A DNA stretch of 64,000 nt from Candidatus Woesearchaeota archaeon. Its GTDB lineage: Archaea; Nanobdellota; Nanobdellia; Woesearchaeales; 21-14-0-10-32-9. The notes under the pieces are model-generated. The model worked only from the letters and a program-made list of their open reading frames with translations. It was not told where the DNA came from and ran no database searches. The stretch spans positions 78,261 to 142,260 of the forward strand of contig JBLKOK010000001.1 in assembly GCA_047602735.1 (NCBI GenBank), in the 5' to 3' direction. Each line of letters starts with the position of its first letter. Position 1 is the stretch's first letter. Shown here piece after piece: positions 12,577-45,849 of this stretch. Position numbers and translations under genes: made by a program.

Positions 12577-12615
12577 TTTTGTTAATAAGTTGTTTTGTTT
12601 AATATAGTTTACTAA

Positions 12616-13812
12616 TTAAACCTTGAACTCACCGTTTTCATATATGACTTTCTTAGAGCCATCTTTTAGAGTAGCCGTTACCTTTCTTTTGTTAGTGGAC
12701 ACTATGTCTGTGTGTACAGATGATTCGTTAAAACCTAGCTCTTCCCATTGTTCTTTTGATACTTTAGAAGGATCTTTTGTATAACTATCTTTATATGCAC
12801 TTCCAAGAGCTATATGCGTGTTTCCTTGTTCTCCACCCACATTTTCATCAAATAGTGTTTCTCCCATAAACTTTGTTATTCTTGAAAGCCTCCTATCAGT
12901 TAGACTAAACTCCCCAACCATATCTGCTCCTTTTGTTGCAATCATATCTTTTAATACTTTAAGACCAGTAGAAGCATCAGCCTTTGTTACTCTTCCATTT
13001 TCAAATTCTAAATATACATCTTGAATTAAATTACCATACCTATACAGATCTTTGTTGAAACGTATCTTTCCACTAGTTCTTTTACAATCAGGACTTATAT
13101 AGAGCTCAAAGCTAGGTATGTTTCTTCCACTTCCACCAAGCCACTTCCTGTTTTCATCAAGCCCAATAATTAAATCAGTGTCTAAAGATTCTATTCTTAA
13201 ATAATCAATATCTAAAGAATTAAGCTCTTTTCTTACACGCTCAATTTCATCTACAACTTCTCTCCATTTTAAAACAGGGTCTTCTTCATCTAAGTAACAA
13301 GCATTTATTATTTCTCCCCAATACTCTTCTAATGACATATTTACTTCATTTGCCATTTGTTTAGTTCCATAAAGAGCAAGAGTCCAAGTTAGCTTACCTT
13401 TATTTTCTTTTTCTTGAATTTTTTCTCTAAACTCTTTTAATGCTTCTCCTCTAGCCATAATTTTTTTAGAATCAATTCCTTCTAACTCTTTTTTATTAGT
13501 TTCAGCAATTATGCTTACAAGATGATCAATTTGGTCAATTATTCCATCCATATATTTTTTTGGATAAAAAGTTATTTGCTCCTCCGAACCATTTTCAAAA
13601 ATGTCTCTTTTCATATCATCTGGAGAAAAATGAACTATTGGATGCCCCCCAGCCTCTAATACTTTTTTGTACAAAGATTTTAACATAGGCTTTGCGCATT
13701 CAGGAACTCTTAGAAGAACTACGTCATCTTTTTTTATTCCTTTAAAATCATTTAATGCAAATTTTATTAATAAATCCGCGTACTTGTCCAATATTTCTTT
13801 AGAAACCACCAT
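12616..13812 (-). CDS. M29-family aminopeptidase (AmpS/PepS-like)
   Basis: The length and motifs (GNTHIALGSAY, VHTDIV) match thermophilic-type aminopeptidase T/S. Confidence 0.75.
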   Translation of the reverse strand: MVVSKEILDKYADLLIKFALNDFKGIKKDDVVLLRVPECAKPMLKSLYKKVLEAGGHPIVHFSPDDMKRDIFENGSEEQITFYPKKYMDGIIDQIDHLVSIIAETNKKELEGIDSKKIMARGEALKEFREKIQEKENKGKLTWTLALYGTKQMANEVNMSLEEYWGEIINACYLDEEDPVLKWREVVDEIERVRKELNSLDIDYLRIESLDTDLIIGLDENRKWLGGSGRNIPSFELYISPDCKRTSGKIRFNKDLYRYGNLIQDVYLEFENGRVTKADASTGLKVLKDMIATKGADMVGEFSLTDRRLSRITKFMGETLFDENVGGEQGNTHIALGSAYKDSYTKDPSKVSKEQWEELGFNESSVHTDIVSTNKRKVTATLKDGSKKVIYENGEFKV

Positions 13813-13860
13813 TATAAATTTTAAGAAAATGAATACTATATAAATTTTTTTTAAATAAAG

Positions 13861-14373
13861 TTATTTTTGATATAAAAAAGGAGTTCTAAATCTTACGTCT
13901 TTTTTTAAACCATCTAAAACAACTAATAATTCATAATCATTAAAATCTTCCCAACTAATAAGTAACGCGTCATACCCTAAAAGCCCTTCTTTCTTATTAT
14001 CTACAATAAATAAAGATAGTCCTTCAATATTTATTTCATGAATACTTGCAATTTTAATATTTTGCAAGTCTTCAGTTCGTATCACTTTTCTTTTAGACGC
14101 AATTAAATTATATCCCTCGTCCAACATCGTTTCCTTTAAATTAATATTTTCATAAGTATATGCTTTTCTTCCAATTATTATTTTATCTACCTCATCATTA
14201 TTTAAACTTATAAGAGCACTTGCAGCACTATCAAAAACAACGTAGTTATAATTAGGATAATTAGTAGTTACAAAATCTTGCATAGTAGGACAAAATCCAA
14301 TAGTTAAATTATTTGAAGGAATACAACTAACAATTAATACTAATACTGATAGAAACAATATTTTTTTAACCAT
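13861..14373 (-). CDS. Secreted or lipobox protein of unknown function, last gene of the redox operon
   Basis: It has a signal peptide ending in LIVSC and overlaps the upstream flavoprotein gene by 8 nt. Confidence 0.5.
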   Translation of the reverse strand: MVKKILFLSVLVLIVSCIPSNNLTIGFCPTMQDFVTTNYPNYNYVVFDSAASALISLNNDEVDKIIIGRKAYTYENINLKETMLDEGYNLIASKRKVIRTEDLQNIKIASIHEINIEGLSLFIVDNKKEGLLGYDALLISWEDFNDYELLVVLDGLKKDVRFRTPFLYQK

Positions 14374-15610
14374 ATTTTATCTCTATTTTTTTTATAGCTA
14401 TTTTTGCAGCTTCAATTAAAGGATCTTTTATGTTAGCCACACAAGGATTATAACAAGTATCTACTTTTACCAAATCATAAATAGTTAGTTTAGATCTTAT
14501 AAACCCCGAGACCATATTTAATCTCCCAGCAACTTCTTCTTTACCAATTATTTGGCAACCTAAAATTAAACCCTTAGAATTACATATAATTTTTAAAATA
14601 TATTCTTCACCACCACAAGTCATATATTTATTAGTTGTTGTAATTTTAGAAACTACTATATTCTCAAAAATAGTATTAGCAATATTTTTAGTTAATCCGA
14701 CGCTTCCAATCACTAAATCACCAATTTTTGAAACCGAGTTTGGTATAAAACCCCCATATTTTTTTTGATTATCTGATAAAATATTTTTTGCTAAGAATTC
14801 ACCTTGCTTTTGAGCTATACTTCCAAGCATGCAATATTCGTATTTATTTGTTATTAAATTTTTAGTTTTAGCCATATCTCCTATTAAATAAGTATTTTTA
14901 TCAATCATTAACTTCTCATTAGGACGATATTTTAAGTCTAATTTTTTTAATATATCAAGATCTGGTTTAAATCCAGTTGAAATAACTAAGTTCTTAGTTT
15001 TGATTTGTTTTATATCAGTTATTTTTTTATTTAAAATAATATTTATACCCTTTTTTTTAAGATAATCGTATACCTTACTAGACATATCTTTATCTAAGTA
15101 ATTAGCAAGCAATGAATCTTTTGATTCCACAATAGTTACGTCAGAGTTCTTAGCTAACGCAAAAGCTAATTCTAATCCTATATAACCTCCCCCTAAAATT
15201 GTTGTGTTTCCAGTTATTTTTTTTAATTTAATTGCATCTTGTTTTGTTTTTAATAAAAAAAAGTCTTTTAATCCTTTTATTTTTGGAATTATTGGTTTAG
15301 ATCCTGTTGCTAATACCAATACATCATAACCAAGAGATTTTTCAATAGATCCATCAAATAAAACTAATGAATTATTTTTTCTTTTAATAGGAAAATGTTG
15401 TTTTAAAAAATTTATATTATCTTCTTTGTAAGAATTGTAAACATCTACACTGCTAATCTTGCCTTCAATAAAATATGGAAGACTGCAAGGACTATATTGA
15501 TTATTGTTTGTTTTATCAACTAATGTTATGTCTACATCTTTATTATAAAACCTTAATTTTCTTGCAAAAGCAGTACCTGCAGTTCCACCACCAACTATTA
15601 CTATTTTCAT
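14366..15610 (-). CDS. FAD-dependent pyridine nucleotide-disulfide oxidoreductase (CoA-disulfide reductase / NADH oxidase family, single redox Cys)
   Basis: MKIVIVGGGTAGTA is the FAD fold. YSPCSLPYFI matches the Cys42 motif of the Nox/Npx/CoADR family. A second GGGYIGLE motif is the NAD fold. Confidence 0.8.
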   Translation of the reverse strand: MKIVIVGGGTAGTAFARKLRFYNKDVDITLVDKTNNNQYSPCSLPYFIEGKISSVDVYNSYKEDNINFLKQHFPIKRKNNSLVLFDGSIEKSLGYDVLVLATGSKPIIPKIKGLKDFFLLKTKQDAIKLKKITGNTTILGGGYIGLELAFALAKNSDVTIVESKDSLLANYLDKDMSSKVYDYLKKKGINIILNKKITDIKQIKTKNLVISTGFKPDLDILKKLDLKYRPNEKLMIDKNTYLIGDMAKTKNLITNKYEYCMLGSIAQKQGEFLAKNILSDNQKKYGGFIPNSVSKIGDLVIGSVGLTKNIANTIFENIVVSKITTTNKYMTCGGEEYILKIICNSKGLILGCQIIGKEEVAGRLNMVSGFIRSKLTIYDLVKVDTCYNPCVANIKDPLIEAAKIAIKKIEIKYG

Positions 15611-16017
15611 TTTAACATTTCTTCACATTCTTCGCTTAAACATTTAATAACTAAGTCTTCCATTTCTTGAGCCAATCTTTGACTAAAACCAACAAACGTT
15701 TGATTAGCAATAAATGTGGTTGGAACACCCCTTACAGTAACACCATATTCATTTGCTACTCTTCTAAATAATTCTTGATTTGTTCTATTTGAATATATTT
15801 CAAATCTTAATATTTCAACATCATGTCTTTGTTCTAACTCATCTAAAAAAGGCTTTTGTTGAGTGCAAATAGGGCATGTATTTCCCCAAAAATAATATAT
15901 TGTTAATTTGTCCTCTGACCCAAAATAACTATCTTCAAAACTAAACTCTTCCTCATATTGATTAGAACAACCACTAACAACCAATAATGCTAATAATATA
16001 TATACATAATATTTCAT
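15607..16017 (-). CDS. Secreted thioredoxin-fold protein with lipobox (CPIC active site)
   Basis: The signal peptide ends in VVSGC. It contains WGNTCPICTQQ (CxxC) and the cis-Pro region VPTTF. Confidence 0.75.
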   Translation of the reverse strand: MKYYVYILLALLVVSGCSNQYEEEFSFEDSYFGSEDKLTIYYFWGNTCPICTQQKPFLDELEQRHDVEILRFEIYSNRTNQELFRRVANEYGVTVRGVPTTFIANQTFVGFSQRLAQEMEDLVIKCLSEECEEMLK

Positions 16018-16394
16018 TTTATTTTATCCCCATAATATTTTTTTGCTTTTTCACTACTCATTAAATCACTTTCTTTAGTTTCCACCGTTAGCTTAACAAT
16101 CCAATTTTTATACGAATCTTCATTTAATAAATTAGGTTCATCAAACAATCCATCGTTTACTTCAACTACTTCGCCTTCAACAGGACAAGATAAATCACCA
16201 GACCACTTTAAAGAATTTATTGTGACATAAGTTTCATTTAATTTTATTTTTTGACCTTTTTTTGGAAGATCTATAAGTACAATTTCTTTAATGTTATCAA
16301 CTGACTCTTGAATCATACCAACAGTAGCTATACCTTTACTTATTTTAATCCAAGAAAAATCTTTATTATATACTAAGTTTTTTGGAAAGCTCAT
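16014..16394 (-). CDS. Glycine-cleavage H-protein-like lipoyl-carrier protein
   Basis: WIKI..G.ATVGM and INSLKWSGDLSCPVEGEVVEVN align with the GcvH ESVKA...PVSGEVVEVN motif, and the lipoyl-Lys position is retained. Confidence 0.7.
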   Translation of the reverse strand: MSFPKNLVYNKDFSWIKISKGIATVGMIQESVDNIKEIVLIDLPKKGQKIKLNETYVTINSLKWSGDLSCPVEGEVVEVNDGLFDEPNLLNEDSYKNWIVKLTVETKESDLMSSEKAKKYYGDKIK

Positions 16395-17284
16395 TTTAAT
16401 TTCTTTGCACCTCTTTCAATAAGTATTATTAATCCACTAAACAAGATAGAGCCTAACACAACCAATAGTGCATAAGACATATTATACATTAAACTGCTAT
16501 CTATTATTAGTATTAATGCTAAAGCTATTATTAATATTCCTCCAATCAATTTTAATGCTCTTCCTTTAAATTCTGTCATTTTAAATGATTTTAATGTTAT
16601 TAATACTGTGATCAATATCATTATTTCTATTGCTAAATAAACAAATAAATATAATAATAAAAACCAAAAAAAGTTTGAAGAAGCAGTAGTAGTTATTATA
16701 CCCGACCAAATTAGAGGAAGACCCGCCGTGCAAGGAAGTTCTATTATGGAGATCCCAAGAGCCATAACAATAGTTGAAAATATTAGTATGTGATTTTTTT
16801 CTTCACGTATTAGGTTTCTTGATTTTTTGAATATCTCTGGCTTATATTTATCAGGTATTGTAAAACTTATACCTTTTTTGTAGAAAAAATAGTCTTTTAC
16901 ATTGACTAAACCAAATATTAAAGCAAGTATTGCAACAAAGTAAGTTATTGATGTTAGTTGATTCATAAAAGTAAAAATAGTGAATATACCTGCTATGAAC
17001 AAACCATAAACAGCCGCAGTTGTAAATAAAAATACACTACCAACAAGAGCTATCTTTTTTCTAGACTTTGTGTGTATTATCATACCCAACAAAAATAATA
17101 AAACCCAAATACTACAAGGGTTAAAACCATCCGCACCTGCAATAAGTATGGTTGCTAAAAACAGAGGCATTTGTTCAACATCAACAGCACCAATTATAGG
17201 CACGTCTAATATTTGATCTGCAGATACCACTGGTAAAATAAATACAGTTAATAATATTATTAATAATAGTTTTTTTATTCGCAT
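16391..17284 (-). CDS. CcdA/DsbD-like transmembrane thiol-disulfide electron transporter
   Basis: A polytopic protein with two intramembrane Pro-Cys motifs (GFNPCSIW and ELPCTAGLP), as in the DsbD/CcdA family. Confidence 0.55.
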   Translation of the reverse strand: MRIKKLLLIILLTVFILPVVSADQILDVPIIGAVDVEQMPLFLATILIAGADGFNPCSIWVLLFLLGMIIHTKSRKKIALVGSVFLFTTAAVYGLFIAGIFTIFTFMNQLTSITYFVAILALIFGLVNVKDYFFYKKGISFTIPDKYKPEIFKKSRNLIREEKNHILIFSTIVMALGISIIELPCTAGLPLIWSGIITTTASSNFFWFLLLYLFVYLAIEIMILITVLITLKSFKMTEFKGRALKLIGGILIIALALILIIDSSLMYNMSYALLVVLGSILFSGLIILIERGAKKLK

Positions 17285-17336
17285 ACTAATAATAATACTT
17301 GAAATGCTTTATAAACCTATTTTTCAAATAATGAAA

Positions 17337-17807
17337 TCATAAAAAAAGCTTTTTTAAATTATCATTTAATTTAATTTTGTGAGTCATACCTTTACTGGTT
17401 TTATAAATTATTTGTTTAGCCTCTAAATTTTTAAGTCTTCGATGTAATTTTACATTAGACATTTTTAGTTTTGAAGCAAGCTTGCTTTGATAGTCTTCAC
17501 CTTTATTGTTTATTAAATGATTAACAATATTTTTTTCATCTGAATCTAAAAAGTTCAAAGTTTCTATTAACAATTTTTTATGTTTAATTTGATCTTTTTC
17601 AACAGCTTTGCTATGAAAATAATAAGTTATACTTCCTGAGAAGAGACCAAGACTTGCAAGAGCTAATAATATTAAATATAAAGACGTTTCACACCCACAA
17701 CTTTTGGTTATAGTATAATTTTCTTGAACAAATATTATTAGAGATAAAACTATAAACATGAATAACGTTATTATACCAAGACTTGCAAATATATATTTCT
17801 TGTTCAT
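17337..17807 (-). CDS. Membrane-anchored winged-helix transcription regulator (MarR/ArsR-like) with a CGC motif
   Basis: Two TM segments flank SCGCETS. The C-terminal wHTH is YQSKLASKLKMSNVKLHRRLKNLEAKQIIYK. Confidence 0.6.
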   Translation of the reverse strand: MNKKYIFASLGIITLFMFIVLSLIIFVQENYTITKSCGCETSLYLILLALASLGLFSGSITYYFHSKAVEKDQIKHKKLLIETLNFLDSDEKNIVNHLINNKGEDYQSKLASKLKMSNVKLHRRLKNLEAKQIIYKTSKGMTHKIKLNDNLKKLFL

Positions 17808-17915
17808 TTCTAAAATACACTCACTAAGATAAACTATAATAGTAATAGATATATAAATGTATTTTTGTTAAATATATACAATACTTTTTTATATTCATAG
17901 TTTTATCTAATAGTT

Positions 17916-18464
17916 ATGACAGAGCAATCTAAAAGACGAAAAAAAATCAAAACCATTTTTTCACAACATAAAATATTAACCGAGAATAGTGATGAAGCCA
18001 GAGAATTATATCAGCAAAATAGGTTTGGAACTATGACTGATGATGGCCAAGTACAACTTAGTTTACACGAAGCACTCTATCTTTTAGAAAAAGGAAGACT
18101 AAGCATGTTAGATGGTAGAAAAAAAGAACTTAGCATGTCAGAAGTGATTAAAAAAAGTAAGAAATCAGAACCTAACTTTTTGATAAGATACGCTGTTTTT
18201 AAAGATATGAGAAACAGAGGATATATTATTAAGACAGCTTTAAAATTTGGAGCAGACTTTAGAGTTTATGATAGAGGAGTAAAACCTGGAGAAGATCACG
18301 CTAGATGGGTAGTATATCCTGTTCATGAAGGTTCAACACTTACATGGTATGAGTTTGCAGCAAAGAACAGAGTTGCACATAGTACAAAGAAAAGACTTAT
18401 GCTTGCAGTTGTAGATGACGAATCAGATGTTACTTATTGGGAAGTTAAATGGATTAGACCATGA
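17916..18464 (+). CDS. endA: tRNA-splicing endonuclease
   Basis: YAVFKDMRNRGYIIKTALKFGADFRVY and HARWVV match the catalytic C-terminal domain of archaeal EndA. Confidence 0.85.
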   Translation: MTEQSKRRKKIKTIFSQHKILTENSDEARELYQQNRFGTMTDDGQVQLSLHEALYLLEKGRLSMLDGRKKELSMSEVIKKSKKSEPNFLIRYAVFKDMRNRGYIIKTALKFGADFRVYDRGVKPGEDHARWVVYPVHEGSTLTWYEFAAKNRVAHSTKKRLMLAVVDDESDVTYWEVKWIRP

Positions 18465-19348
18465 ATATTACTAAAGAAGAAATACTGAGTGTTGTAAAAG
18501 ATAAAGGACCGATAATTCCTTTAGATATTAAAAGAGCTCTTAATAAAGGAGATTCTATGATCATAGGAGCTATGCTCAGCCAACTCATAAATTCTGGAGA
18601 GGTTAAAATTACTAATGTTAAACTTGGAAGCAGTCCGTTTTATTATGTTAAAGAACAACTAGAAAAGTTAGAAGAACTCTCAGAGTATTTGAATGAAAAA
18701 GATAAAAGAGCATACAATTTACTTAGAGAAGAAAAAGTATTAAGAGATAATAAGCTAGAGCCAATAGAGAGAGTTAGTTTAAGAAACATACCTGATTTTT
18801 CAAAGAAATTAGTTGTTAGCATAAGCGGAGAAAAAGAGATATTTTGGAAATATTATTTGCTTTCAGATAATCAAGGAGTAGAAGTTATAAAACAAAAAAT
18901 TATTCCACAAAAACAAATAGCTAAAAAACAAGAAGAGAAGAAAGAACCTCAAAAACCTGTTCAAAAAGAACCAGCTGTGGAAACTAAAAAAGAGGTTAAA
19001 GAACAACAAAAAACTCTTGAAGACGATAATGATAGAAGTGAATTTGAAAATATGCTAAGAACTTATTTTGATGCACAAGGAATAATAGTGGTTAAAAAAG
19101 AAGTTGTAAGAAAGAATTCAGAATACGATTTTAATATTAGATTGAGAACTGCTCTTGGTGACGCAGAATTTTATTGTAAAGCTAGAAATAAGAAAAAAGT
19201 GCCTGATGGAGACATAGCAGATGCTTATCTTCAAGGTCTTATAAAAAGAAGCCCAACTGTTTTTATTACAAACGGAGAAGTTGCAAAAAAAAGCAAAGAT
19301 AAACTTAAAACACATTATAAAGGACTTATAATTAAAGAGATAAAATGA
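18461..19348 (+). CDS. Winged-helix protein with a C-terminal Mrr-like (PD-(D/E)xK) domain
   Basis: N-terminal wH (DIKRALNKGDSMIIGAMLSQLINSGEV), a Lys/Glu/Pro linker, and a C-terminal YDFNIRL...AEFYCKARNKKKVPDGDIADAYLQG resembling Mrr_cat. It has 4-nt overlaps with both neighbours. Confidence 0.45.
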   Translation: MNITKEEILSVVKDKGPIIPLDIKRALNKGDSMIIGAMLSQLINSGEVKITNVKLGSSPFYYVKEQLEKLEELSEYLNEKDKRAYNLLREEKVLRDNKLEPIERVSLRNIPDFSKKLVVSISGEKEIFWKYYLLSDNQGVEVIKQKIIPQKQIAKKQEEKKEPQKPVQKEPAVETKKEVKEQQKTLEDDNDRSEFENMLRTYFDAQGIIVVKKEVVRKNSEYDFNIRLRTALGDAEFYCKARNKKKVPDGDIADAYLQGLIKRSPTVFITNGEVAKKSKDKLKTHYKGLIIKEIK

Positions 19349-35175: not shown

Positions 35176-36093
35176 TTGTTAATAAATATGTTATGCGTAG
35201 TAGCGTTTATCGTGTTTGGAATTATGGGTATTTTTTCTTTAAAGTATAGAACACTAGCAAAAGAAGCGCTAAATTGTACTTTTCGAAGAGTTACTTTAAG
35301 AAAATGCGATACTGGTCTTGATAAAAAAGTTAAAAATATGTTTGTTGCCAAGCTTGGACGAAAACATCCACGACTTGGACGTTTTTTATATAAGTACTTT
35401 GAAGTTTTTACATGGATACTAATACTATTAACTGCTTGGTCTATGTATGAGATAGGAGTAGGAACGTATAACTATGCTGTTTACGGAAGTTGTATAAAGC
35501 CAGGAGATAGCGGAGTTTGTATTTTAAACATACAAGAGTCATTAAACCAATACTCCACTATTAGAGCAGATTATCCAGATGAGATGATTTATCCAAGCCC
35601 TAAAGGTCCAAGCATAGGTAATAGTGAATCAGATATCATAGTAATAATGTTTGGATGTTTTACTTGCCCTTATACAACACTCGCAATTCCGAAGATAGAT
35701 GAATTAATTGAAGAATACAAAGACGAAGTTTTATTTGTGTTTAAAGATTTCCCTATACTCAATCATAGATACGCATTTGAAACAGCAACATATGCAAAGT
35801 GTGCTTTAGAACAAAATAAATATTTTGAAGCAAGAACTCTAATTTACACAAATCCCTATTATCATAGCAGACCTGGTGAACTTGCAATAGAATTAAACTT
35901 AGACTTAGATTTGTTTAATGAGTGTATAAATAGTGAAGAAACTGAAAATTATGTGTTTGATGTGTTTGAAGAAGGAATTAACGCACATATTAGAGCAACC
36001 CCTACATTTTTTATTAATGAAGAAATAATAACAGGATCAAGAGATTCGGATATAGATAGAATAAGAAGAGTTATTGAAGAAGAACTAAGATGA
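35176..36093 (+). CDS. DsbA-like thioredoxin-fold oxidoreductase fused to an N-terminal two-TM Cys-containing domain
   Basis: The C-terminal domain has FGCFTCPY (CxxC) and the cis-Pro TPTFFI. The N-terminal region has 2 hydrophobic segments plus Cys pairs (NCTFRRVTLRKC and SCIKPGDSGVC). Confidence 0.7.
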   Translation: MLINMLCVVAFIVFGIMGIFSLKYRTLAKEALNCTFRRVTLRKCDTGLDKKVKNMFVAKLGRKHPRLGRFLYKYFEVFTWILILLTAWSMYEIGVGTYNYAVYGSCIKPGDSGVCILNIQESLNQYSTIRADYPDEMIYPSPKGPSIGNSESDIIVIMFGCFTCPYTTLAIPKIDELIEEYKDEVLFVFKDFPILNHRYAFETATYAKCALEQNKYFEARTLIYTNPYYHSRPGELAIELNLDLDLFNECINSEETENYVFDVFEEGINAHIRATPTFFINEEIITGSRDSDIDRIRRVIEEELR

Positions 36094-37306: not shown

Positions 37307-38527
37307 ATGATTGTTAACTTAGAAAACAATATACTAAAAAAGAATTTTTCTAATAAAAAACTGGTTTGTTCAGATATAAATACTAGTTATAGCCCTAAAA
37401 AAATTTATGATAGAGAAAGCCTAGAAAATAATGAGCACGTACATAGAGCAATACTTAAGCTTATAGGAAAAAAAGAAAACAAAGGATTAGAAACTAAACT
37501 AGAAAGAACAAAAACTAAACTAGAAGAAGCAAAGAATACTATAAATGAATTAATAGAAACAGAAATAAAATTAAAAAAAATAAATGAAACATATCAACAA
37601 GAACCAAAAAATGCGACTTTTATGTTAGATCAATATAAAGAATTTATAACCGAACTAAGAGAAAACGAGACAGTTAATAATTATTATGAAGAAATAAACG
37701 TTTTAGAAAAAAAATTTATTGGAATGATAAATTCACCTAGAAAAGAGAAAAACATTAACAGAGCAAAAACAGAAGGAATAAAAAGAAAATTATATGGCTT
37801 TTTGAAAAAACAAAATAAATTTAAAACCCACCAATATATGAAAAAAATAACAAAAGAAGTATATACTTACAAAAACGACTTCGAGCTTCTAATGGACTAC
37901 GAAGATAATAAAATAAACTTTGAAAAACCAACAAAAATATTTTCTAAAACAAAAAAACAAATTAAAGAAGAATTAAGAATAATAGAGAAAGAAAAAAAAG
38001 AACTATCAAAAATAGTAGAAGAAACAAAAAAAGAAAAAAAAGAATATGAAAAGGAAAAGCAAGATTTTTTTGATATAAACATAAAAAAAGAACTTAACAA
38101 CTTAGGATACATACAACTTTTAACCTTGTATAAAGAAAATGTTAATGGGGAAGAAAAAAGATATATAGGTAATGAAAAGTTAGATGAAAAACAAACCAGA
38201 GGCTTAATAGAAATAGACTCAGAATTAAATATAACATATACTTCATTTGAAGGAGAAACAATTAATACAAATAGAAAGCTTCTAGGACTTATATATACAC
38301 CTAGTCTAAGATATAATATAAGCGAATATGAAATAGGACAAAAAAACTATGAACGCGGAGACGTAATAGAATACCCAGATATATTTAATGAAGAATATGC
38401 TAAAAACATAAAATTAAGCGAGGTTTTAATAAATGAGTTAGAACTAGGAAGAGTAATAGTTTCTTATGATCAAAAAACAAAAGAATATTTCTTAGAAGGA
38501 AAAATAATTGATAAAATCCTAAACTAA
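37307..38527 (+). CDS. Hypothetical Lys/Glu-rich coiled-coil protein (406 aa)
   Basis: ORF only. Confidence 0.5.
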   Translation: MIVNLENNILKKNFSNKKLVCSDINTSYSPKKIYDRESLENNEHVHRAILKLIGKKENKGLETKLERTKTKLEEAKNTINELIETEIKLKKINETYQQEPKNATFMLDQYKEFITELRENETVNNYYEEINVLEKKFIGMINSPRKEKNINRAKTEGIKRKLYGFLKKQNKFKTHQYMKKITKEVYTYKNDFELLMDYEDNKINFEKPTKIFSKTKKQIKEELRIIEKEKKELSKIVEETKKEKKEYEKEKQDFFDINIKKELNNLGYIQLLTLYKENVNGEEKRYIGNEKLDEKQTRGLIEIDSELNITYTSFEGETINTNRKLLGLIYTPSLRYNISEYEIGQKNYERGDVIEYPDIFNEEYAKNIKLSEVLINELELGRVIVSYDQKTKEYFLEGKIIDKILN

Positions 38528-38555: not shown

Positions 38556-39515
38556 ATGGATTCGAACGCTATATGGACTGAAAAATACAGACCACAAAAA
38601 TTCTCAGAAGTAAAAGGACAACAAGAAATAGTAAAAAGAGTAGAAGCATTTGTTAAACAAAAAAACTTACCACACTTATTACTTGCAGGTCCGCCAGGCG
38701 TTGGAAAAACTACTCTTTCACTTGTAATAGTAAAAGAGATGTATGGAGATTCATGGAGAGAAAACTTCTTAGAACTTAACGCATCAGATGAGAGAGGAAT
38801 AGATATAGTAAGACAAAAAGTTAAAGACTTTGCAAGAACAAAAAGCATAGGCGATGTTCCTTTTAAAATAATATACTTAGACGAAAGTGATGCTTTAACA
38901 AAAGAAGCGCAACAAGCACTTAGAAGAACAATGGAGAACTACACAACTACTTGTAGATTTATTCTTAGCTGTAATTACTCAAGTAAGATATTAGAACCAA
39001 TACAAAGTAGATGTACTATTTTTAGATTTAAACCACTTAGCAAAGAATCAATATATGAAATAATAGATTCAATTGTTAAAAACGAAAACTTAACAATAGA
39101 TGAAGAAGCAAAAGAAGCATTGTACTATGTGTCAGGAGGAGATGTTAGAAAGCTTGAAAACGTACTTCAAAGCTGTGCAGCAATAACAAAAGATATCAAC
39201 AAAAATACTATTTATGGAATTAGCAGCTTTGCAGAACCAGTAGAGATTAGAGAAGTTCTTAAAAGATGTATAAATCAAGATTTTCAAGGAGCAAAAAAGA
39301 AGTTACTAGACACTATGCTAAACCAAGGATTATCAGGTATAGATGTTATAAAACAACTTCAAAAAGAAGCATGGAATAGTGAAGCAGACGATCAAATAAA
39401 GCTTGAAATGGTAAAGATGTGTGGAGAAGTAGAATTTAGATTAATAGAAGGCAGTGACGAATTCATACAATTAGAAAGCTTACTTGCAAAATTTGTTTTG
39501 ATAAATAAAAAATAA
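38556..39515 (+). CDS. rfcS: Replication factor C small subunit
   Basis: WTEKYRPQKFSEVKGQ, LLLAGPPGVGKTT, the DESD Walker B and SRC (QSRCTIFRF). Confidence 0.95.
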   Translation: MDSNAIWTEKYRPQKFSEVKGQQEIVKRVEAFVKQKNLPHLLLAGPPGVGKTTLSLVIVKEMYGDSWRENFLELNASDERGIDIVRQKVKDFARTKSIGDVPFKIIYLDESDALTKEAQQALRRTMENYTTTCRFILSCNYSSKILEPIQSRCTIFRFKPLSKESIYEIIDSIVKNENLTIDEEAKEALYYVSGGDVRKLENVLQSCAAITKDINKNTIYGISSFAEPVEIREVLKRCINQDFQGAKKKLLDTMLNQGLSGIDVIKQLQKEAWNSEADDQIKLEMVKMCGEVEFRLIEGSDEFIQLESLLAKFVLINKK

Positions 39516-39531
39516 AAAGAAAAGAAAAAAA

Positions 39532-40470
39532 TTAGTTTCTTTCAACTATCACATTCTTTTGAATGTTTTCGTTGTAGTCATAAACAAGTTCTATGTTAAA
39601 AGGTTGTATCCTTGGACTTCTTTCACTAAACGAAATATCACAAGTTATATCAACAACCCCTTGATCACTTAAAACTATGTATCCTTCACTCGGATTAGCA
39701 CCCTCTCTTAATCCTCTACAACTAACTTCTTCTCCTTGAGCTGAACTAAAGCCAGATACTCTTAAGAAAATTCTGTCATTTCTTCTAGCATCACTTGCAC
39801 AACTGTAACCAGTTTCAAATACTCTTCCCTGGTCTCTGTTTTCAATTGTGAAACTAACTCTTGTTCTATCACTACCCGCAGCAGATTGAGTCATCCTAGT
39901 TATTTGTATAGGTGCAGCACTATTAAAGACTTGTCTGCTTGCTGAAACAGTACAAATATCACCTGTTCTATCTCTTCTAAAATCTTCCTTTACACAAACA
40001 CTCGTAGATACCTGAGTTGAATATTTATAACAAATATCTGCTCTTACAGGAAAAGCCTGATTTCCTTGAACAATATTTTGATAAGCAAAATCATTAAACT
40101 CTACTTCTACAGGTACACTACTAACTATGCTCCCATCAGGGTTTTTAAGATTTCTTTCTATTAATTCTGGACTGTTAGAAGTTAAATCAGCAACATTTCT
40201 TCCAAACTGAGAAGCAGGAAATCCACTGATTGTTACAAGAACATCTTTTGGTTCAACATCAGCTTCACCCCTATTTGTAACTTTTACAATTATGTCAAAA
40301 GGGTCCTCTCCACCGTCACTAACTGTTGCAGGCGGAAAACTATCTACAAAAGAAATTTTCAAACCTTGCGTTCCTCCAATAAACGGAGTCGTACTATCAA
40401 ATCCCGTGTTTGACTCACAAGCTGCAAGTAAAAGCAGCATCGCCGTCAATATAATAAACATTTTTTTCAT
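39532..40470 (-). CDS. Secreted Cys-rich lipobox protein, paralogue 3 of the surface-protein operon
   Basis: The signal peptide ends in LLLAAC. It has 6 further Cys and shares motifs with 40493..41803 and 41832..42809 (CYKYSTQVSTSVCV, AAPIQIT, FTIENRDQGRVFE, ELVYDYNENIQKNVIVER). Confidence 0.75.
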   Translation of the reverse strand: MKKMFIILTAMLLLLAACESNTGFDSTTPFIGGTQGLKISFVDSFPPATVSDGGEDPFDIIVKVTNRGEADVEPKDVLVTISGFPASQFGRNVADLTSNSPELIERNLKNPDGSIVSSVPVEVEFNDFAYQNIVQGNQAFPVRADICYKYSTQVSTSVCVKEDFRRDRTGDICTVSASRQVFNSAAPIQITRMTQSAAGSDRTRVSFTIENRDQGRVFETGYSCASDARRNDRIFLRVSGFSSAQGEEVSCRGLREGANPSEGYIVLSDQGVVDITCDISFSERSPRIQPFNIELVYDYNENIQKNVIVERN

Positions 40471-40492
40471 TTTTTACCTCCTAAAGTAATTG

Positions 40493-41803
40493 TTAACTTA
40501 ATCTCCTTACGCGCAGATTATTATTAATATTTTGCTCATAACCATACCAAAGCTCCATTCTAAGAGGAGTAACATAAGCACTTCCACTTATAAATTCATC
40601 TGCAAAATTATAAGTACAAGTAAATCTACCAACCCCATTATTTAATCTTATGGTTCTTTGAGTACAATCTATGAATGTATCATCTATCATTACAAACCCA
40701 ACATAAACTACATCATGATGATTTCTACCAGTTCCAGTTTCTGGATAATAAGGACTGCAACGCTCAAGGCTTCCAACCTCCCAAACACGTCCGTTACCAA
40801 CATTTCTTACTTCAAAATCCATCACTACACTTCTCCCAGTGTTTCTTTGACTAACTCTTGTAACTGCAACAGGAGCACCTTGATTACTCATAGCTATATC
40901 TTGATTAGCCCTACAAACACCCCTATCACCACTCCAAGGATCAGGATCTACACAAATCATAGGACTAACAAAAGTAGTATATGCATAACAGCTTCTTACC
41001 TGATAAGGAATATTTATTTCATCAGTCCCACTAGGCCAACTACCCTTCATTTGAACTAAAAATTGTTTATAATCATCTCCACCACCTGGAAACTCAGGAT
41101 TATCCCCTCTTAAAGTATAAGTCATACCATTTAAATTTTCAAAATTAAAATTGCCATATATTAAAGACATTAAAAGCTTACCATGATATAAAGTATTTAA
41201 TTGAAAACCATCCAAAGCAAGATTAAAACCCCAATGATTGCCTGTTTGTTGAATTCCAACCCTAACTCCTTCAGGAAGATCCCATCCAAATGCTCTATTC
41301 ATTTGACTAAAATCAAAATTAATTGTTCTTCTATCACCCGCTCCCCTAACACCTATACCACCACAATTTAAATTAAAATTAGGTAAAGGACCAAAAGAAC
41401 CAAAACTAAAACCACAACTATCACCAAAACCTCTTATATTAATAGGTAACTCAGTTCCATCCCCGTATATCCTTGTGACTTCAAAAGTAGGACCAAAACC
41501 AGATAAAAACACAGCTCCATAAGCATCACTCGCACCCCTATTATGAACCCTAACATTTAATTGAATTGCATTACCATCTCTTGTGTTAGTAGCATCTATA
41601 GATCTGTAATAAAGCATGTTTGGAGGCCTATCCAAAATTATGTCAACTCCCTGGGTGCCCGTATAATATCTACAATTTTGACCCTCAGCACAAGCAACAG
41701 CTCTATCAGCACCAAAACCACCACAACCAGCTATAAAAAGTAACGAAACTAATAATACAGGTAATAAAAATTTATTTTTCATAGTAAGTATACTCATAAA
41801 CAT
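40493..41803 (-). CDS. Secreted Cys-rich lipobox protein, paralogue 2 (Gly/Asn-rich insert)
   Basis: The likely start is MKNKFLL (41782). Lipobox FIAGC; 10 further Cys. Motifs are CYAYTTFVSPMICV, GAPVAVT, FEVRNVGNGRVWE and ELWYGYEQNINNNLRVRR. Confidence 0.75.
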   Translation of the reverse strand: MFMSILTMKNKFLLPVLLVSLLFIAGCGGFGADRAVACAEGQNCRYYTGTQGVDIILDRPPNMLYYRSIDATNTRDGNAIQLNVRVHNRGASDAYGAVFLSGFGPTFEVTRIYGDGTELPINIRGFGDSCGFSFGSFGPLPNFNLNCGGIGVRGAGDRRTINFDFSQMNRAFGWDLPEGVRVGIQQTGNHWGFNLALDGFQLNTLYHGKLLMSLIYGNFNFENLNGMTYTLRGDNPEFPGGGDDYKQFLVQMKGSWPSGTDEINIPYQVRSCYAYTTFVSPMICVDPDPWSGDRGVCRANQDIAMSNQGAPVAVTRVSQRNTGRSVVMDFEVRNVGNGRVWEVGSLERCSPYYPETGTGRNHHDVVYVGFVMIDDTFIDCTQRTIRLNNGVGRFTCTYNFADEFISGSAYVTPLRMELWYGYEQNINNNLRVRRLS

Positions 41804-41831
41804 AGTATTTAAAAGTTACCATTTTTAGAAG

Positions 41832-42809
41832 CTAATTTCTTCTTATTTCTACTTGTTTTGAAGTTTGGTCTAAATAATAATAATCAAGCCAAACAGTTAA
41901 AACATCTTGATAACTGCTTGAAGCCCCGAATAAATCATCTTCTTGAACAACACACCTAACTCTCGCCTGATTATTTCTAAGAATAACAGGGTTTGGAGTG
42001 CAATCAAGCTTTATCCCTAGTAATTCAGCCTCTACTTTTATTTCACCAAGAATCCTGTCTGAGCTAGCAGTACAAGCACCTAACCCTTTATCAGTTCCAA
42101 AAACTAAGCCTTGGCCTAAGTTTCTTATAGTTATCTCAAAACTAGGTTGTAAAAGCATAAGTCTTGCTTCAACAACTTCAGAGCCAATTCGCCTTAAATT
42201 ACCATCTTCATCTAAATAAGACCTAGCAGTATCTTGACTTGAAGAAATAAAACCTCTTGGAATAACAGTAGGTTCAATACTTGTTATACCCACAGGAGCT
42301 CCTTGACCTGAATAAGAATGCATAGTTCTTGATCTACAAACACTATTTCTTTGAGTTCCAAATAAATCACTATCTATACAAAAGAAATCTGTGAGTATCG
42401 TAGTGTAAGGATAACAAGTAGATACAGAAATAGAAGTTCTGACTGTCTCTCTTGAACCAGTAATTGATCTTACTTGAAGATTTTCCAAATCACTAATAAA
42501 ACCCATTTCTCCAAAAGGATAATCAGGCTGCTTACCCAATAATTCAAACTCTTCTATTATCTTCCCAGAACCAGTAAAATAAAAAGTATCATACTCAAAA
42601 ATTACTTTGCCGTTTGTATCAAAAGCACCTCTGTTATATACGTTTGCACCAAGCATAAAAGGAGTGTCTTCATAAATTGTAACAGGAGGAGTGTTTTGAG
42701 CAAAACTTGCAACAACCCCCTCTCTTCCCTGAAAATAATTAACCTCACTAAATGAAGGTTGAGAACAAGCCGCAAGTATTAGCAAAACTAATAATAAATA
42801 CCTCATCAT
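41832..42809 (-). CDS. Secreted Cys-rich lipobox protein, paralogue 1
   Basis: Lipobox ILAAC; 6 further Cys. Motifs are CYPYTTILTDFFCI, GAPVGIT, ITIRNLGQGLVFG and VWLDYYYLDQTSKQVEIRR. Its ATG overlaps the upstream stop (ATGA). Confidence 0.75.
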   Translation of the reverse strand: MMRYLLLVLLILAACSQPSFSEVNYFQGREGVVASFAQNTPPVTIYEDTPFMLGANVYNRGAFDTNGKVIFEYDTFYFTGSGKIIEEFELLGKQPDYPFGEMGFISDLENLQVRSITGSRETVRTSISVSTCYPYTTILTDFFCIDSDLFGTQRNSVCRSRTMHSYSGQGAPVGITSIEPTVIPRGFISSSQDTARSYLDEDGNLRRIGSEVVEARLMLLQPSFEITIRNLGQGLVFGTDKGLGACTASSDRILGEIKVEAELLGIKLDCTPNPVILRNNQARVRCVVQEDDLFGASSSYQDVLTVWLDYYYLDQTSKQVEIRRN

Positions 42810-44650
42810 GAGCTACCACCTGGAAGTCTTAAAACATTAATATCAGTTCTAGAAGTTAATTGATAATCATAACTAACTTCAGCAAAAATAGTTACCGGTC
42901 TTACACCAGAACTTGAAATTTGATCAACACTTCTATCGTTAATTTTTGCATTACAACTTACAGCTAAGAAATTAATATCAGAATCAAAATCATAACTGTA
43001 AATAACATAGTTTTGATCTGGATCAGTACCTTGTCTAGTGAGAGGAATAGTACATTGGTTACCTTCAAAACTTATAGCTTCAGGAACTCTTGTTTCAAAG
43101 TTGTTTATCCTTGTTATTTCTCCCCTTAATTGATTATTTCTAATACCAAAATCTAGAGCAAAGAAAGTATCTCTATCATCAAATGTAGGTATTGGCATAG
43201 TTACAGATTCATTCATACCTAAAAATACAGGCCCATTAGTATAAATATTTGTTGGCCTTAAAGGAATTCTATGTCTTTGATTCCAAGTTTGCCTTGAAGC
43301 TTCTTCTAAAGTAGATCTTGGAACAAAATAATAAGTACTATAAGCACTTGTTTTAAAGTTAAACCTAGCATCTAACCTAGCGCTAAATCTTCCCGCACTT
43401 ATATTCATATCCTCAAAATCACAAAATATTCTTCTATCCTCAAAGTCAGAAACATTTATACTCGGAGGAGTTGTAGTCCCCATAACTTCTCTTCCATTCC
43501 TATCCGTCAACGAACAGAAAAATTCAACTTCTACGTTATCAATATAAGATCTTACTTGGAAATCAGCAAATACTCGTATAGGTTGATTTTCATAAAAAGT
43601 ACTAGCAGGTCTTAAGTTATCTAAAAACACCCCTGAACGCTCCCTAGTATTCTCTACTTGAGCAGCATATCCTCTACCAAGAGTTTCATTAAGTCTTGCA
43701 TCTACAGCACCAGTTATAGCCCCATAAGTATTTTTTATATTATCAGTTATAGCAGACAAAGCACTAGATAAATATTCTCTTCCATCCCCAATAACTTCAT
43801 CTGTATCTAATCCTTGTGCAGAACCAACTTCTCCAATAGTTCCTGAAAATGAATTTAACATTAAAAACAAAGCAATAGTTATCATCGCCGCCAAATAAAA
43901 TAAACTAGCCCTCCCTAAGAAGCCTTGATTTATTTGTTTTGCAAATACTAAGTATAAAACCCAAACAGGTATAAACATAAATGCAACATTTAACTGACTT
44001 ATTATTACTTGATCAATAGGAAGCATACTAAACAACCTGCCTATCTGCGGAATAATAAATAACGGAAATAAACTAACAAAAAAGAATTCTTTTAATGCGA
44101 CACCTTTATCCATTTTAATTAATGCTAAACCCGCTAAAGATAATAACATGTAAAGAAATATTCTTTGCATAATCGTAATGGTATCAATTCTAAAACCAAA
44201 ATATAAAAAATCTATAATGTGAACAAGTATAGCTAATGCTAAAAGTATTTGACCTCCTCCCTGATTATTTTCTTCAGGATTATAATCTGATTTTTTAAGT
44301 AACCAACTAAGTCCAGCACCTATAGCCGCTCCAGCACCTACAGCTAATTTTTTAGATCTTAAAGCAGATTGATTATTAGGAGCTTGAGGACTATTTTGAT
44401 TATTAGCTTGATTGTTTTGCTGAGACTGACTTAACTGACTTTGCAACCTACTAACTCTTTGTTCTAATTCTTTTAAATGATCTTCAGATGCTTTTTTAGC
44501 ATCACCCTCTAATGACTCATGACGCTTACTTGCAATACTATGAGCTATTTTAGCAGACTGAAGCATACTCATAATTTTTTCTTCGCTACCTATTGCAGCA
44601 GATCTTGTTCTCATATCAGCACCCGCTCTAGCAAGTAATTGCCAGACCAT
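42806..44650 (-). CDS. Polytopic membrane protein with a cytoplasmic coiled-coil/QN-rich N-terminus and a large ectodomain related to the lipobox paralogues
   Basis: 614 aa, with about six hydrophobic segments (residues ~100-270). The C-terminal 330 aa contain FGIRNNQLRGEI and a terminal EVSYDYQLTSRTDINVLR resembling the paralogue signatures. The ectodomain has 4 Cys. Confidence 0.7.
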   Translation of the reverse strand: MVWQLLARAGADMRTRSAAIGSEEKIMSMLQSAKIAHSIASKRHESLEGDAKKASEDHLKELEQRVSRLQSQLSQSQQNNQANNQNSPQAPNNQSALRSKKLAVGAGAAIGAGLSWLLKKSDYNPEENNQGGGQILLALAILVHIIDFLYFGFRIDTITIMQRIFLYMLLSLAGLALIKMDKGVALKEFFFVSLFPLFIIPQIGRLFSMLPIDQVIISQLNVAFMFIPVWVLYLVFAKQINQGFLGRASLFYLAAMITIALFLMLNSFSGTIGEVGSAQGLDTDEVIGDGREYLSSALSAITDNIKNTYGAITGAVDARLNETLGRGYAAQVENTRERSGVFLDNLRPASTFYENQPIRVFADFQVRSYIDNVEVEFFCSLTDRNGREVMGTTTPPSINVSDFEDRRIFCDFEDMNISAGRFSARLDARFNFKTSAYSTYYFVPRSTLEEASRQTWNQRHRIPLRPTNIYTNGPVFLGMNESVTMPIPTFDDRDTFFALDFGIRNNQLRGEITRINNFETRVPEAISFEGNQCTIPLTRQGTDPDQNYVIYSYDFDSDINFLAVSCNAKINDRSVDQISSSGVRPVTIFAEVSYDYQLTSRTDINVLRLPGGSS

Positions 44651-44651
44651 T

Positions 44652-45818
44652 TTATTTTAACTCAACTTTGAGCTCAGTTATATCCACAGTTTGAAGAGCT
44701 CTAACTTCTAATGAATTAGAACCTGGAACTAAATAAGACGAAACATCTCTTGTAAACACAGAATCTGCAACGTTTACAGATATAAATCTGCCATTAAGGA
44801 ATATTTCCAATCTTTTCCTGTCTGGATTTGTAAACCTTAAATTTAGCTCAGCCTCTCTATTTTGTCTTAAGGTTTCATTTTCATAAAAATACTTTTCATC
44901 AACATCAAAAATAAAAAGAGGGTTATCCGGTATTTCTAATCTTTTAAGTAATCTAAGTTGATCTATTGTTATAGTTCCATCATCAATACTAAACTCTAAA
45001 TAATTTACCCCTGGATATAAGTCTTCTCTAGATAAACTTATATGATTAAAAATATTACAATCAGGAATTCCTCTAAATACCGTGTTATGATTTACTTTTA
45101 TCTCAAAGTTGCTTACTTGCCCAGGATTACAAGTTGCTAAGTATCTTAATCTTGCAGTACTTAACAAAACTGCGTCTCTTTCAGATAAACTCATAGTTTG
45201 AGTGTTAAAAGATCTAGTTATATCAGTTACGTCACCAACCACTCTTAGATTTGAGATGTCGTAATAATTGTATGACCAAAATACTAAACCAGGACTAGAA
45301 ACTAAAAATTTTAATGTGTTTGAATTTCTAAGATCTGAATTATCAATGTATATAGGAGGACTATTCCCATCTATTTCTCCAAAGAAAATTCTTTTATCAT
45401 TTAGCAATACTTCTAATCTTCCCTTACCAACTGCGTTGAACGTGACTATTAAGTCTTCAGCTAACTCAGGATTTATATTAAAAGTCAAAGTATCATCTAT
45501 ATTATCAAATAAACTGTTTTTTACATATAAATTAGATTTACTAGCAACAACCTCCGCAGAAGTAAGAGTTCTCAAATTAAAACTTTGAAGATCTAAACCT
45601 AATTCTGAATCTGGAACAAAATTTAACCTACCAATAAATTCATCAACAAGAACTAGAGGTCTTGACGCAGAAGGCTCAGTAGAAGAATCACCATTATTTA
45701 ATAATGCTTCTCTGTCTGCTGGAGGTAAAAACAATATATATAAGACTATAACAACAGTTATAACAATAAGAGTTATAGCCGCACTATTTGCACTAGATTG
45801 AGCTTTTTTGAATTTCAT
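44652..45818 (-). CDS. Prepilin-like (class III signal-like) surface protein with three internal beta-sandwich-like repeats
   Basis: The N-terminus is MKFKKAQSSANSAAITLIVITVVIVLYILF (basic residues, A/Q, then a hydrophobic helix). Three segments share the pattern LE[VI]xLN...F...G.N.L.F...I..L.V. Confidence 0.65.
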   Translation of the reverse strand: MKFKKAQSSANSAAITLIVITVVIVLYILFLPPADREALLNNGDSSTEPSASRPLVLVDEFIGRLNFVPDSELGLDLQSFNLRTLTSAEVVASKSNLYVKNSLFDNIDDTLTFNINPELAEDLIVTFNAVGKGRLEVLLNDKRIFFGEIDGNSPPIYIDNSDLRNSNTLKFLVSSPGLVFWSYNYYDISNLRVVGDVTDITRSFNTQTMSLSERDAVLLSTARLRYLATCNPGQVSNFEIKVNHNTVFRGIPDCNIFNHISLSREDLYPGVNYLEFSIDDGTITIDQLRLLKRLEIPDNPLFIFDVDEKYFYENETLRQNREAELNLRFTNPDRKRLEIFLNGRFISVNVADSVFTRDVSSYLVPGSNSLEVRALQTVDITELKVELK

Positions 45819-45840: not shown

Positions 45841-45849
45841 ATATATAAA
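45841..45849 (-). promoter_or_regulatory. TATA box candidate for the surface-protein operon
   Basis: The minus strand reads CTTTATATATAC, centred about 27 nt upstream of the ATG at 45818. This would give a leaderless or near-leaderless transcript. Confidence 0.4.

Follow-up and report, generated by a model that had tools for sequence, protein, structure and literature searches.

A conserved five-gene module for a candidate membrane-anchored surface complex in Woesearchaeota

The locus analysed here lies in a 64,000-nucleotide (nt) stretch of archaeal DNA (contig JBLKOK010000001.1 of a Candidatus Woesearchaeota archaeon, positions 78,261 to 142,260), hereafter the window, whose contig has a low GC content (~30%). 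Five co-directional open reading frames (ORFs) on the minus strand between positions 39532 and 45818 make up a compact module, named here A to E from upstream to downstream: gene A (44652–45818, 388 amino acids (aa)), gene B (42806–44650, 614 aa), gene C (41832–42809, 325 aa), gene D (40493–41803, 436 aa) and gene E (39532–40470, 312 aa). A previous sequence-only reading of the stretch had delimited the same five ORFs with the same lengths, and an independent gene call returned the same genes; the NCBI copies of the five proteins carry the locus tags ACMXX9_00680 to 00700. The genes are closely packed and their translation is coupled, gene B starting 1 nt past the stop of gene A and genes B and C overlapping by 4 nt, with spacers of 1 (A-B), -4 (B-C), 28 (C-D) and 22 nt (D-E). 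The spacers first proposed (1, -4, 22 and 22 nt) therefore stand except for the third, as a C-D spacer of 22 nt would require D to begin at its third codon (Met3); the 436-aa start of D agrees with the independent gene call. The mature products A to E contain 2, 4, 6, 10 and 6 Cys residues, respectively, as had been counted previously.

Candidate expression signals could be read directly from the sequence at both ends of the module. A TATA-like box (TTTATATA, 45842–45849, minus strand), the presence of which had been noted before, is located 24–31 nt upstream of the gene A ATG (45818) and 6 nt past the stop of the topoisomerase VI subunit A gene, and is a putative promoter of a leaderless or short-leader transcript. 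A GGAGGT Shine-Dalgarno sequence is found upstream of gene E, and an oligo-T tract (39507–39531, minus strand) directly after the gene E stop, overlapping the 3' end of a convergent gene for the replication factor C (RFC) small subunit, is a putative archaeal terminator. Upstream of the module, the genes for topoisomerase VI B and A share its strand, and the convergent RFC gene lies downstream. The neighbouring genes in the window and in 82 loci have housekeeping functions (topoisomerase VI, RFC, Pelota, TrmB and the like), and the remainder of the window is of the same ordinary kind.

None of the five proteins gave a significant match in Pfam, NCBIfam, PHROGs or PADLOC, and no CARDB or DUF11 profile matched any of them at E values up to 1, although the fold predicted for E is generically immunoglobulin (Ig)-like; this agrees with the sequence-only reading, in which no characterised family had been recognised. 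Searches of PDB sequences with the A, E and B family profiles returned noise only (nanobodies, Piezo and matches biased by transmembrane segments). Confident matches to S-layer, pilus or adhesin systems already known, named beforehand as the result that would speak against an undescribed assembly, were looked for and none was found for any of the five, and no description of the five-gene module was found in the literature on S-layers, transglycosylases, lipoboxes and gene clusters of Woesearchaeota. The folds are common ones, but the system that they make up is new, and among the families considered the only tested criterion it shares is the generic one for lipoboxes. PMC8204110 describes unannotated lineage-specific families (“module 98”) that probably include those of the module.

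To describe the distribution of the module, the A profile was scanned against one genome per GTDB species, giving 92 confirmed loci, 80 of which were fetched; relatives of gene A were thereby found in 92 GTDB species genomes, all DPANN-type, a count that hangs on a single peptide pattern. Iterative hidden Markov model (HMM) searches of the ORFs at these loci recovered gene A followed by B and by three C/D/E superfamily members. Among the 55 loci with enough downstream sequence, 47 had the full A-B-C-D-E set, seven had A and B with two paralogues and one had A alone. The module was always single-copy, and the conservation of its gene order, which had been put forward as a check, proved very strong. 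In the three distant homologues examined first, the five genes were arranged in the same way and the module again ended convergent to RFC. Homologues numbered 29 for E (from close to distant) and 43 for A, all from sources labelled Woesearchaeota or Nanoarchaeia, and only three were recovered for B by word-indexed search owing to the fast divergence of this protein. A Pelota homologue was present near the module in 71/84 loci, mostly upstream and divergent, and RFC was found downstream in 36/84; the divergent Pelota gene upstream of A in most other genomes implies that the module has its own promoter there. No other non-housekeeping family travelled with the module across 82–84 loci. A viral or mobile origin was considered and rejected on the basis of the conserved core-genome synteny and of a scan of IMG/VR, in which no relatives in viral contigs were found, and a defence system was rejected as there was no PADLOC match and no defence-island context in the window. 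Many of the module-carrying GenBank third-party annotation assemblies are titled “uncultured Methanosarcinales archaeon” (loci L006, L009, L022, L026, L027, L031 and others) and one (L041) is titled “Alphaproteobacteria bacterium”; these titles are probably taxonomic mislabels or reflect bin contamination.

Proteins C, D and E each have a signal peptide ending in the pattern [LVI][ASTVI][GAS]C used as the criterion for lipobox lipoproteins, with LAAC in C (Cys15), IAGC in D (Cys27) and LAAC in E (Cys18), followed by six, ten and six further Cys residues, respectively. A lipobox-like motif was present in 153 of the 173 members of the C/D/E superfamily, and in the E family the lipobox Cys and six others (147, 159, 173, 224, 251 and 277) were invariant in an alignment of 23 sequences. 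Lipoproteins are reported to be prevalent in DPANN archaea, where AliA is reported with gaps (PMC12462473). The proposal that the three proteins are paralogues was borne out by pairwise BLASTP (E values of 8e-14, 1e-13 and 5e-6) and by full-length HHalign comparison of the family profiles (probability 100%, E values of 2e-58, 5e-44 and 1e-39), whereas the profile of protein A did not match those of C, D or E in HHalign. Of the four motifs said to be shared by the three proteins, the first three are matched exactly by each of them, whereas no shuffle out of 2000 matched in all three, but the fourth is exact only in E and B and is approximate in C and D. In the 47 loci with exactly three paralogues, the best cross-genome match of each copy was always at the same operon position (47/47/47), indicating that the triplication is older than the radiation of the clade and that the copies are not interchangeable. 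Such position-specific conservation is the pattern expected if C, D and E were distinct subunits of one complex.

Structure models and Foldseek comparisons cover proteins A and E. The AlphaFold2 model of E (predicted local distance difference test (pLDDT) 90, predicted template-modelling score 0.84) is all-beta and consists of tandem Ig-like sandwiches. In the PDB its matches were generic and included the thigh and calf domains of integrin alpha, staphylococcal MSCRAMMs, transglutaminase C-terminal barrels and the AglB C-terminal domain, all with template-modelling (TM) scores of ~0.2, and comparison with viral structures gave nothing specific. Membership in the integrin, MSCRAMM, transglutaminase, BcsB and phage tail-fibre families was rejected, since with TM scores of ~0.2 the likeness is that of generic beta-sandwiches. 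The C/D/E superfamily is large in environmental data, where an exhaustive HMMER search with the E profile yielded 2,706 cluster representatives at 50% identity, including 547 at E <=1e-30. A Pfam scan of extended E-type homologues gave one informative match, in the metagenomic protein P0173 (1612 aa), a giant relative of E in which three Laminin_G_3 (ConA-like lectin) domains precede an E-type domain (residues 1072–1344), a further lectin-type elaboration of the family.

The most conserved stretch of protein A is its membrane anchor and juxtamembrane helix (residues 10–44; 45687–45791, minus strand). In the family alignment, the N-terminus consists of a [KR][KR][GA]Q motif, a stretch of small residues, a transmembrane helix (residues 10–29 in A) and an invariant juxtamembrane LYILFLPPxxRExLL, the invariant residues of the anchor segment being Y27, L29, F30, P32, R36 and L40; two Cys residues (C230 and C254) are also invariant. 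This anchor segment is likely to be an intramembrane contact with protein B. The AlphaFold2 model of A (pLDDT 87) comprises helices 10–29 and 33–44, a low-confidence linker and three jelly-roll beta-sandwiches. Foldseek matches in the PDB included accessory domains of GH35 beta-galactosidases, carbohydrate-binding domains of BcsB, reelin repeats, Cry toxins and PNGase F, with probabilities of up to 1.0 and yet TM scores of <=0.26, and the model indicates a lectin- or carbohydrate-binding module (CBM)-type (galactose-binding-like) fold rather than membership in any of the matched families. For example, BcsB, the periplasmic subunit of bacterial cellulose synthase, resembles A as a membrane-anchored chain of carbohydrate-binding jelly-rolls and was matched with a Foldseek probability of 1.0, but shares only 8–10% identity with it at a TM score of <=0.26, is anchored C-terminally and has flavodoxin-like domains; furthermore, A has no BcsB match in Pfam and no synthase gene is found nearby. 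About 25 of 83 A proteins carry a ~170-aa insertion between the second and third jelly-roll that is extremely Cys-rich, with repeated CGDDxDxxCPxGC...YDKDCCF units and no match in Pfam; these orthologues are 553–635 aa in length (loci L002, L017, L023, L027, L028, L031 and ~20 more).

The sequence-only reading had likened the gene order to an assembly line that begins with a prepilin-like N-terminus, that of A (KKAQSSA and then a hydrophobic stretch), and the module could be viewed as a type IV filament-related (pilus- or bindosome-like) assembly with A as a class III pilin-like subunit, processed by a prepilin peptidase, and the other products as accessory proteins. The N-terminus of A (KKA|QSSA) does fit a FlaFind-type class III pattern, and a [KR]x?[GA]Q motif is present in 61/83 members of the A family; class III signals are also known to anchor surface proteins that do not form filaments, such as bindosome components (bioRxiv 10.64898/2026.04.22.720090). 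However, the strict pattern (KAQSSA in A) was matched in only 22/81 A relatives, and in the model of A the 20-residue transmembrane helix is broken by the invariant Pro-Pro and followed by a flexible linker and jelly-rolls, without the alpha1-beta fold of a pilin. Type IV filament systems are recognised by four components, namely ATPase, platform protein, pilin and class III peptidase (bioRxiv 10.64898/2026.04.22.720090). No secretion ATPase (PilB/FlaI-type) was found among the five products in Pfam or NCBIfam or in the neighbourhood (window and 82 loci), the sole polytopic product, B, had no match to the platform protein family (PilC/FlaJ, T2SSF) at E values up to 1, and no class III signal peptidase (PibD/FlaK/EppA, Peptidase_A24) is encoded in the 64-kb window. 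These findings do not support a pilus-like assembly line, and a filament-related role is considered very improbable.

Protein B has a K/E/Q-rich, cytoplasmic N-terminus that is variable in length and sequence, followed by a block of five transmembrane segments (residues 131–263; 43862–44260, minus strand) delineated from family-mean hydropathy and conservation, in which H143, D146, P201 and P228 are conserved. This block makes up the conserved core of the protein together with an ectodomain of ~300 aa (residues 310–614; 42809–43723, minus strand) with four Cys residues (C379, C410, C533 and C566), each kept in >=90% of members, a YTxGPV motif and a C-terminal YxY...VxV strand. An N-in/C-out topology follows from the extracytoplasmic hydrolase domains that are fused past the ectodomain in orthologues. 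Full-length copies of B span 476–1319 aa, reflecting N-terminal variation and C-terminal additions. The ectodomain had been said to carry degenerate versions of two elements of the lipoproteins; the C-terminal Y-D-Y...V-x-V-x-R strand does align but the other element does not, and in HHalign comparisons with the C, D and E profiles only this last strand was aligned (22–25 columns, probability 1–21%). The evidence for a kinship of the B ectodomain with the lipoproteins is weak, and B as a fourth paralogue was rejected as unproven. The 614-aa B protein of the window ends with the core ectodomain, and neither a Pfam scan nor the fusion-specific SLT profile detected a hydrolase domain in it.

Some orthologues of the module, in contrast to that of the window, carry peptidoglycan-hydrolase domains. 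In a Pfam scan of 34 B proteins of >=690 aa, in which all scores were above gathering thresholds, a hydrolase was fused to B in 9/72 species, or ~15 when divergent cases were included. The fused domains were an SLT lytic transglycosylase in loci L026, L027, L031, L038, L055, L070 and L071 (best E value of 7e-19), a Peptidase_M23 domain in L009 (residues 791–901) and an NlpC/P60 domain in L013 (residues 637–752). In addition, the lipoprotein at position 3 is fused to a 3D (MltA-type) domain in L073 (residues 587–653) and to a DUF2272 domain in L083 (residues 471–579); DUF2272 has been grouped with the NlpC/P60, CHAP and amidase families, including peptidoglycan amidases of the Tse1 type (PMC10318531). 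Mapping against the core HMMs placed the SLT and M23 domains directly after the conserved B ectodomain (ectodomain 367–720 and SLT 756–860 in L031; ectodomain 356–750 and M23 791–901 in L009), while the NlpC/P60 domain of L013 is inserted ahead of the final ectodomain strand. A single-seed SLT jackhmmer search was too narrow (two matches), but a multi-seed profile of the fused SLT domains revealed extra divergent copies in L065, L046, L084, L078 and L067 and a marginal one in L053, with no SLT-like domain outside B proteins or in the window. The catalytic E-S...G[LI]MQ signature is kept in 5–6 of eight SLT domains. The further accessory domains are of binding or adhesion types (fn3, PKD, beta/gamma-crystallin, CBM_35, CBM-like and three ConA-like lectin domains).

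The modules armed with hydrolases are scattered over at least four clades of the gene A tree, and this scatter, together with the involvement of five hydrolase families, indicates repeated recruitment. The occurrence of the fusions in scattered lineages also places the B ectodomain outside the cell, and an extracellular location of the module as a whole is supported by the lipoboxes, the invariant Cys residues, the all-beta Ig-like and jelly-roll models and the hydrolase fusions. Peptidoglycan hydrolases are otherwise reported in only ~5% of archaeal genomes; archaeal members have been shown to kill bacteria, and homologues are prominent in Nanoarchaeota (PMC12352652). The pattern of domain fusions suggests that the module would work where bacterial wall material is within reach.

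Taken together, the five products may well constitute a membrane-anchored, disulfide-stabilised surface complex of fixed composition that contacts the cell walls of partner cells, probably bacterial ones, and that is armed in some lineages, although belief and doubt in this reading are about evenly balanced. We infer the formation of such a complex, its subunit contacts, its ligand and its biological role, whereas the gene structure, its conservation, the paralogy, the predicted folds, the anchor signals and the domain fusions are shown directly. In the proposed arrangement, A and B would form a membrane-embedded base, probably through the invariant transmembrane and juxtamembrane segment of A, on which the tandem Ig-like lipoproteins C, D and E would dock; on the outer face of the membrane, the complex would contact glycan-rich material of a partner cell wall, most likely bacterial. 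In about one-fifth of lineages, which are armed with SLT, M23 or NlpC/P60 domains after or in the B ectodomain or with 3D or DUF2272 domains on the position-3 lipoprotein, binding may be combined with local peptidoglycan cleavage that serves attachment, entry or scavenging. The unarmed version of the organism studied here would bind or scaffold only. A bolder version, in which the module is the core host-contact apparatus of Woesearchaeales, docking on bacteria and breaching their peptidoglycan when armed, is possible but doubtful.

Several observations weigh against a complex directed at bacterial walls. About 80% of modules, including the five proteins of the window, are unarmed, so that the core function cannot be peptidoglycan cleavage itself, and the fusions could merely use B as a convenient surface anchor. 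Moreover, the fold matches of A and E are generic (TM scores of ~0.2), and the hosts of Woesearchaeota proposed by some authors are methanogens, which lack murein. The true phyletic range of the module, Pacearchaeales included, may also differ from that returned by the peptide pattern.

A possible life of Woesearchaeota on bacteria, described as “vampiristic” or episymbiotic, has previously been discussed, as have the large extracellular SLT proteins of Woesearchaeota and Pacearchaeota (PMC8204110, 2021; PMC9723730, Vigneron et al. 2022, on the GH23 genes of “vampiristic” Woesearchaeota). These SLT/GH23 proteins come from the same lineage as the module, place the same kind of catalytic domain outside the cell and have been proposed to bind and degrade the walls of bacterial hosts or prey. 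However, they are single large proteins found by their enzyme domain, whereas in the module the enzyme is an optional appendage of B and a core without known domains is kept with or without it.

The absence of an enzyme from 80% of modules would also fit a structural layer of the envelope, S-layer-like or acting as a scaffold that anchors an S-layer, with the hydrolase and lectin domains being incidental on an abundant surface protein. Such a role would be consistent with the presence of the module in nearly all sampled relatives as a single-copy set of fixed order in a housekeeping neighbourhood, and with its lipid-anchored, Ig-like and Cys-stabilised domains. The Ig-like domain lattices of the S-layer proteins of Haloferax and Nitrosopumilus resemble the lipoprotein domains of the module, and known archaeal S-layers (Haloferax volcanii csg, Sulfolobales SlaA/SlaB) likewise consist of extracellular, Ig-like, membrane-tethered envelope proteins. 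However, archaeal S-layers are normally made of one or two very abundant proteins and not of five equimolar products including a five-transmembrane protein. No S-layer homology of the module was detected in Pfam, NCBIfam or PDB sequences, no S-layer entry was among the top Foldseek PDB matches of E, and the module proteins end in a beta-strand motif and not in PGF-CTERM. In addition, five independent kinds of murein hydrolase on one module are hard to explain as chance decoration, and separately annotated “S-layer protein genes” are already reported among the top transcripts in Woesearchaeota metatranscriptomes (PMC11606122). An envelope layer appears rather unlikely.

Another explanation is that the module harvests glycans or muropeptides at the surface, with A and the lipoproteins capturing fragments of cell wall, the fused hydrolases trimming them and B passing the products to or across the membrane of a metabolically dependent cell. 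This would follow the logic of the Sus-like complexes of Bacteroidetes (SusD/E/F/G), in which Ig-like and CBM-type surface lipoproteins are combined with a membrane protein and a glycan hydrolase. The beta-sandwich lipoproteins, the CBM-like domains, the polytopic protein and the occasional glycan or peptide hydrolases fit such a role, and related DPANN genomes are reported to be rich in muramoyl-tetrapeptide carboxypeptidase, with a proposal that amino acids are scavenged from bacteria (PMC11537232). Against it, the five-transmembrane block of B matches no transporter family and is weakly conserved save for a few residues, no ATPase, permease or binding-protein gene is linked to the module, and most modules have no hydrolase. 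Unlike Sus-like complexes, the module lacks a TonB-dependent transporter and a SusD fold and belongs to a single-membrane archaeon, and it resembles them neither in sequence nor in any specific fold. Harvesting is regarded as improbable.

The operon logic of the module is also found in the Gram-positive cell-surface complex (Csc/WxL) operons of enterococci and lactobacilli, in which paralogous secreted beta-sandwich proteins and a membrane-anchored partner form a surface complex implicated in the binding of polysaccharides or the host. Structures of WxL-interacting proteins (9i25 and 9i1y) were among the Foldseek matches of E (ranks 39 and 49), but with TM scores of only 0.19–0.23. No WxL domain protein or DUF916/DUF3324 partner was matched among the five proteins in Pfam, nor DUF916 in NCBIfam, and LPXTG is absent; unlike the bacterial complexes, the module is anchored by lipoboxes and transmembrane helices in an archaeal membrane and not in a peptidoglycan of its own.

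Woesearchaeota rank with the most abundant and diverse of the uncultured archaea, and the majority of the proteins specific to their lineage are unannotated. The module represents a self-contained, order-wide five-subunit surface system of ancient and fixed architecture, with repeated recruitment of enzymes that cut the walls of bacteria and not those of archaea, and would clearly illustrate how gene triplication can build a heteromeric complex. Whether DPANN archaea include episymbionts or predators of bacteria thereby becomes testable with defined proteins. If the host-contact reading is true, the module would provide the first lineage-wide molecular marker of, and experimental handle on, DPANN archaea living on bacteria and not on archaea; if its role is purely structural, it would define the envelope architecture of a major archaeal clade.

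Outside the module, a gene 3.4 kb away (35176–36093, plus strand) encodes a 305-aa membrane protein with N-terminal transmembrane segments and a Thioredoxin_4/DsbA-like domain with a CFTC (CxxC) motif. The abundance of conserved Cys residues in the module would be in keeping with an extracytoplasmic disulfide oxidoreductase, but this gene is not syntenic with it in three other annotated loci (L001, L002 and L004). A 321-aa protein (2473–3438, minus strand) combines a bacterial-type SurA N-terminal domain with a PPIC-type rotamase, a periplasmic-chaperone architecture that is unusual in an archaeon and is possibly relevant to the folding of exported proteins. Between a cysteine desulfurase-like gene and RFC lies a 406-aa ORF (37307–38527, plus strand) that is very rich in K, E and N and has no Pfam match. 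In the distant locus L002, genes next to the module and just past RFC (12498–18905 of that locus, minus strand) encode a beta-propeller protein and two large proteins without annotation (938 and 1074 aa), which may be further surface proteins. Finally, a 771-aa HerA/DUF87-type ATPase of the window (3526–5841, plus strand) is interrupted by an intein, whose Intein_splicing and LAGLIDADG homing-endonuclease domains occupy residues 69–397.

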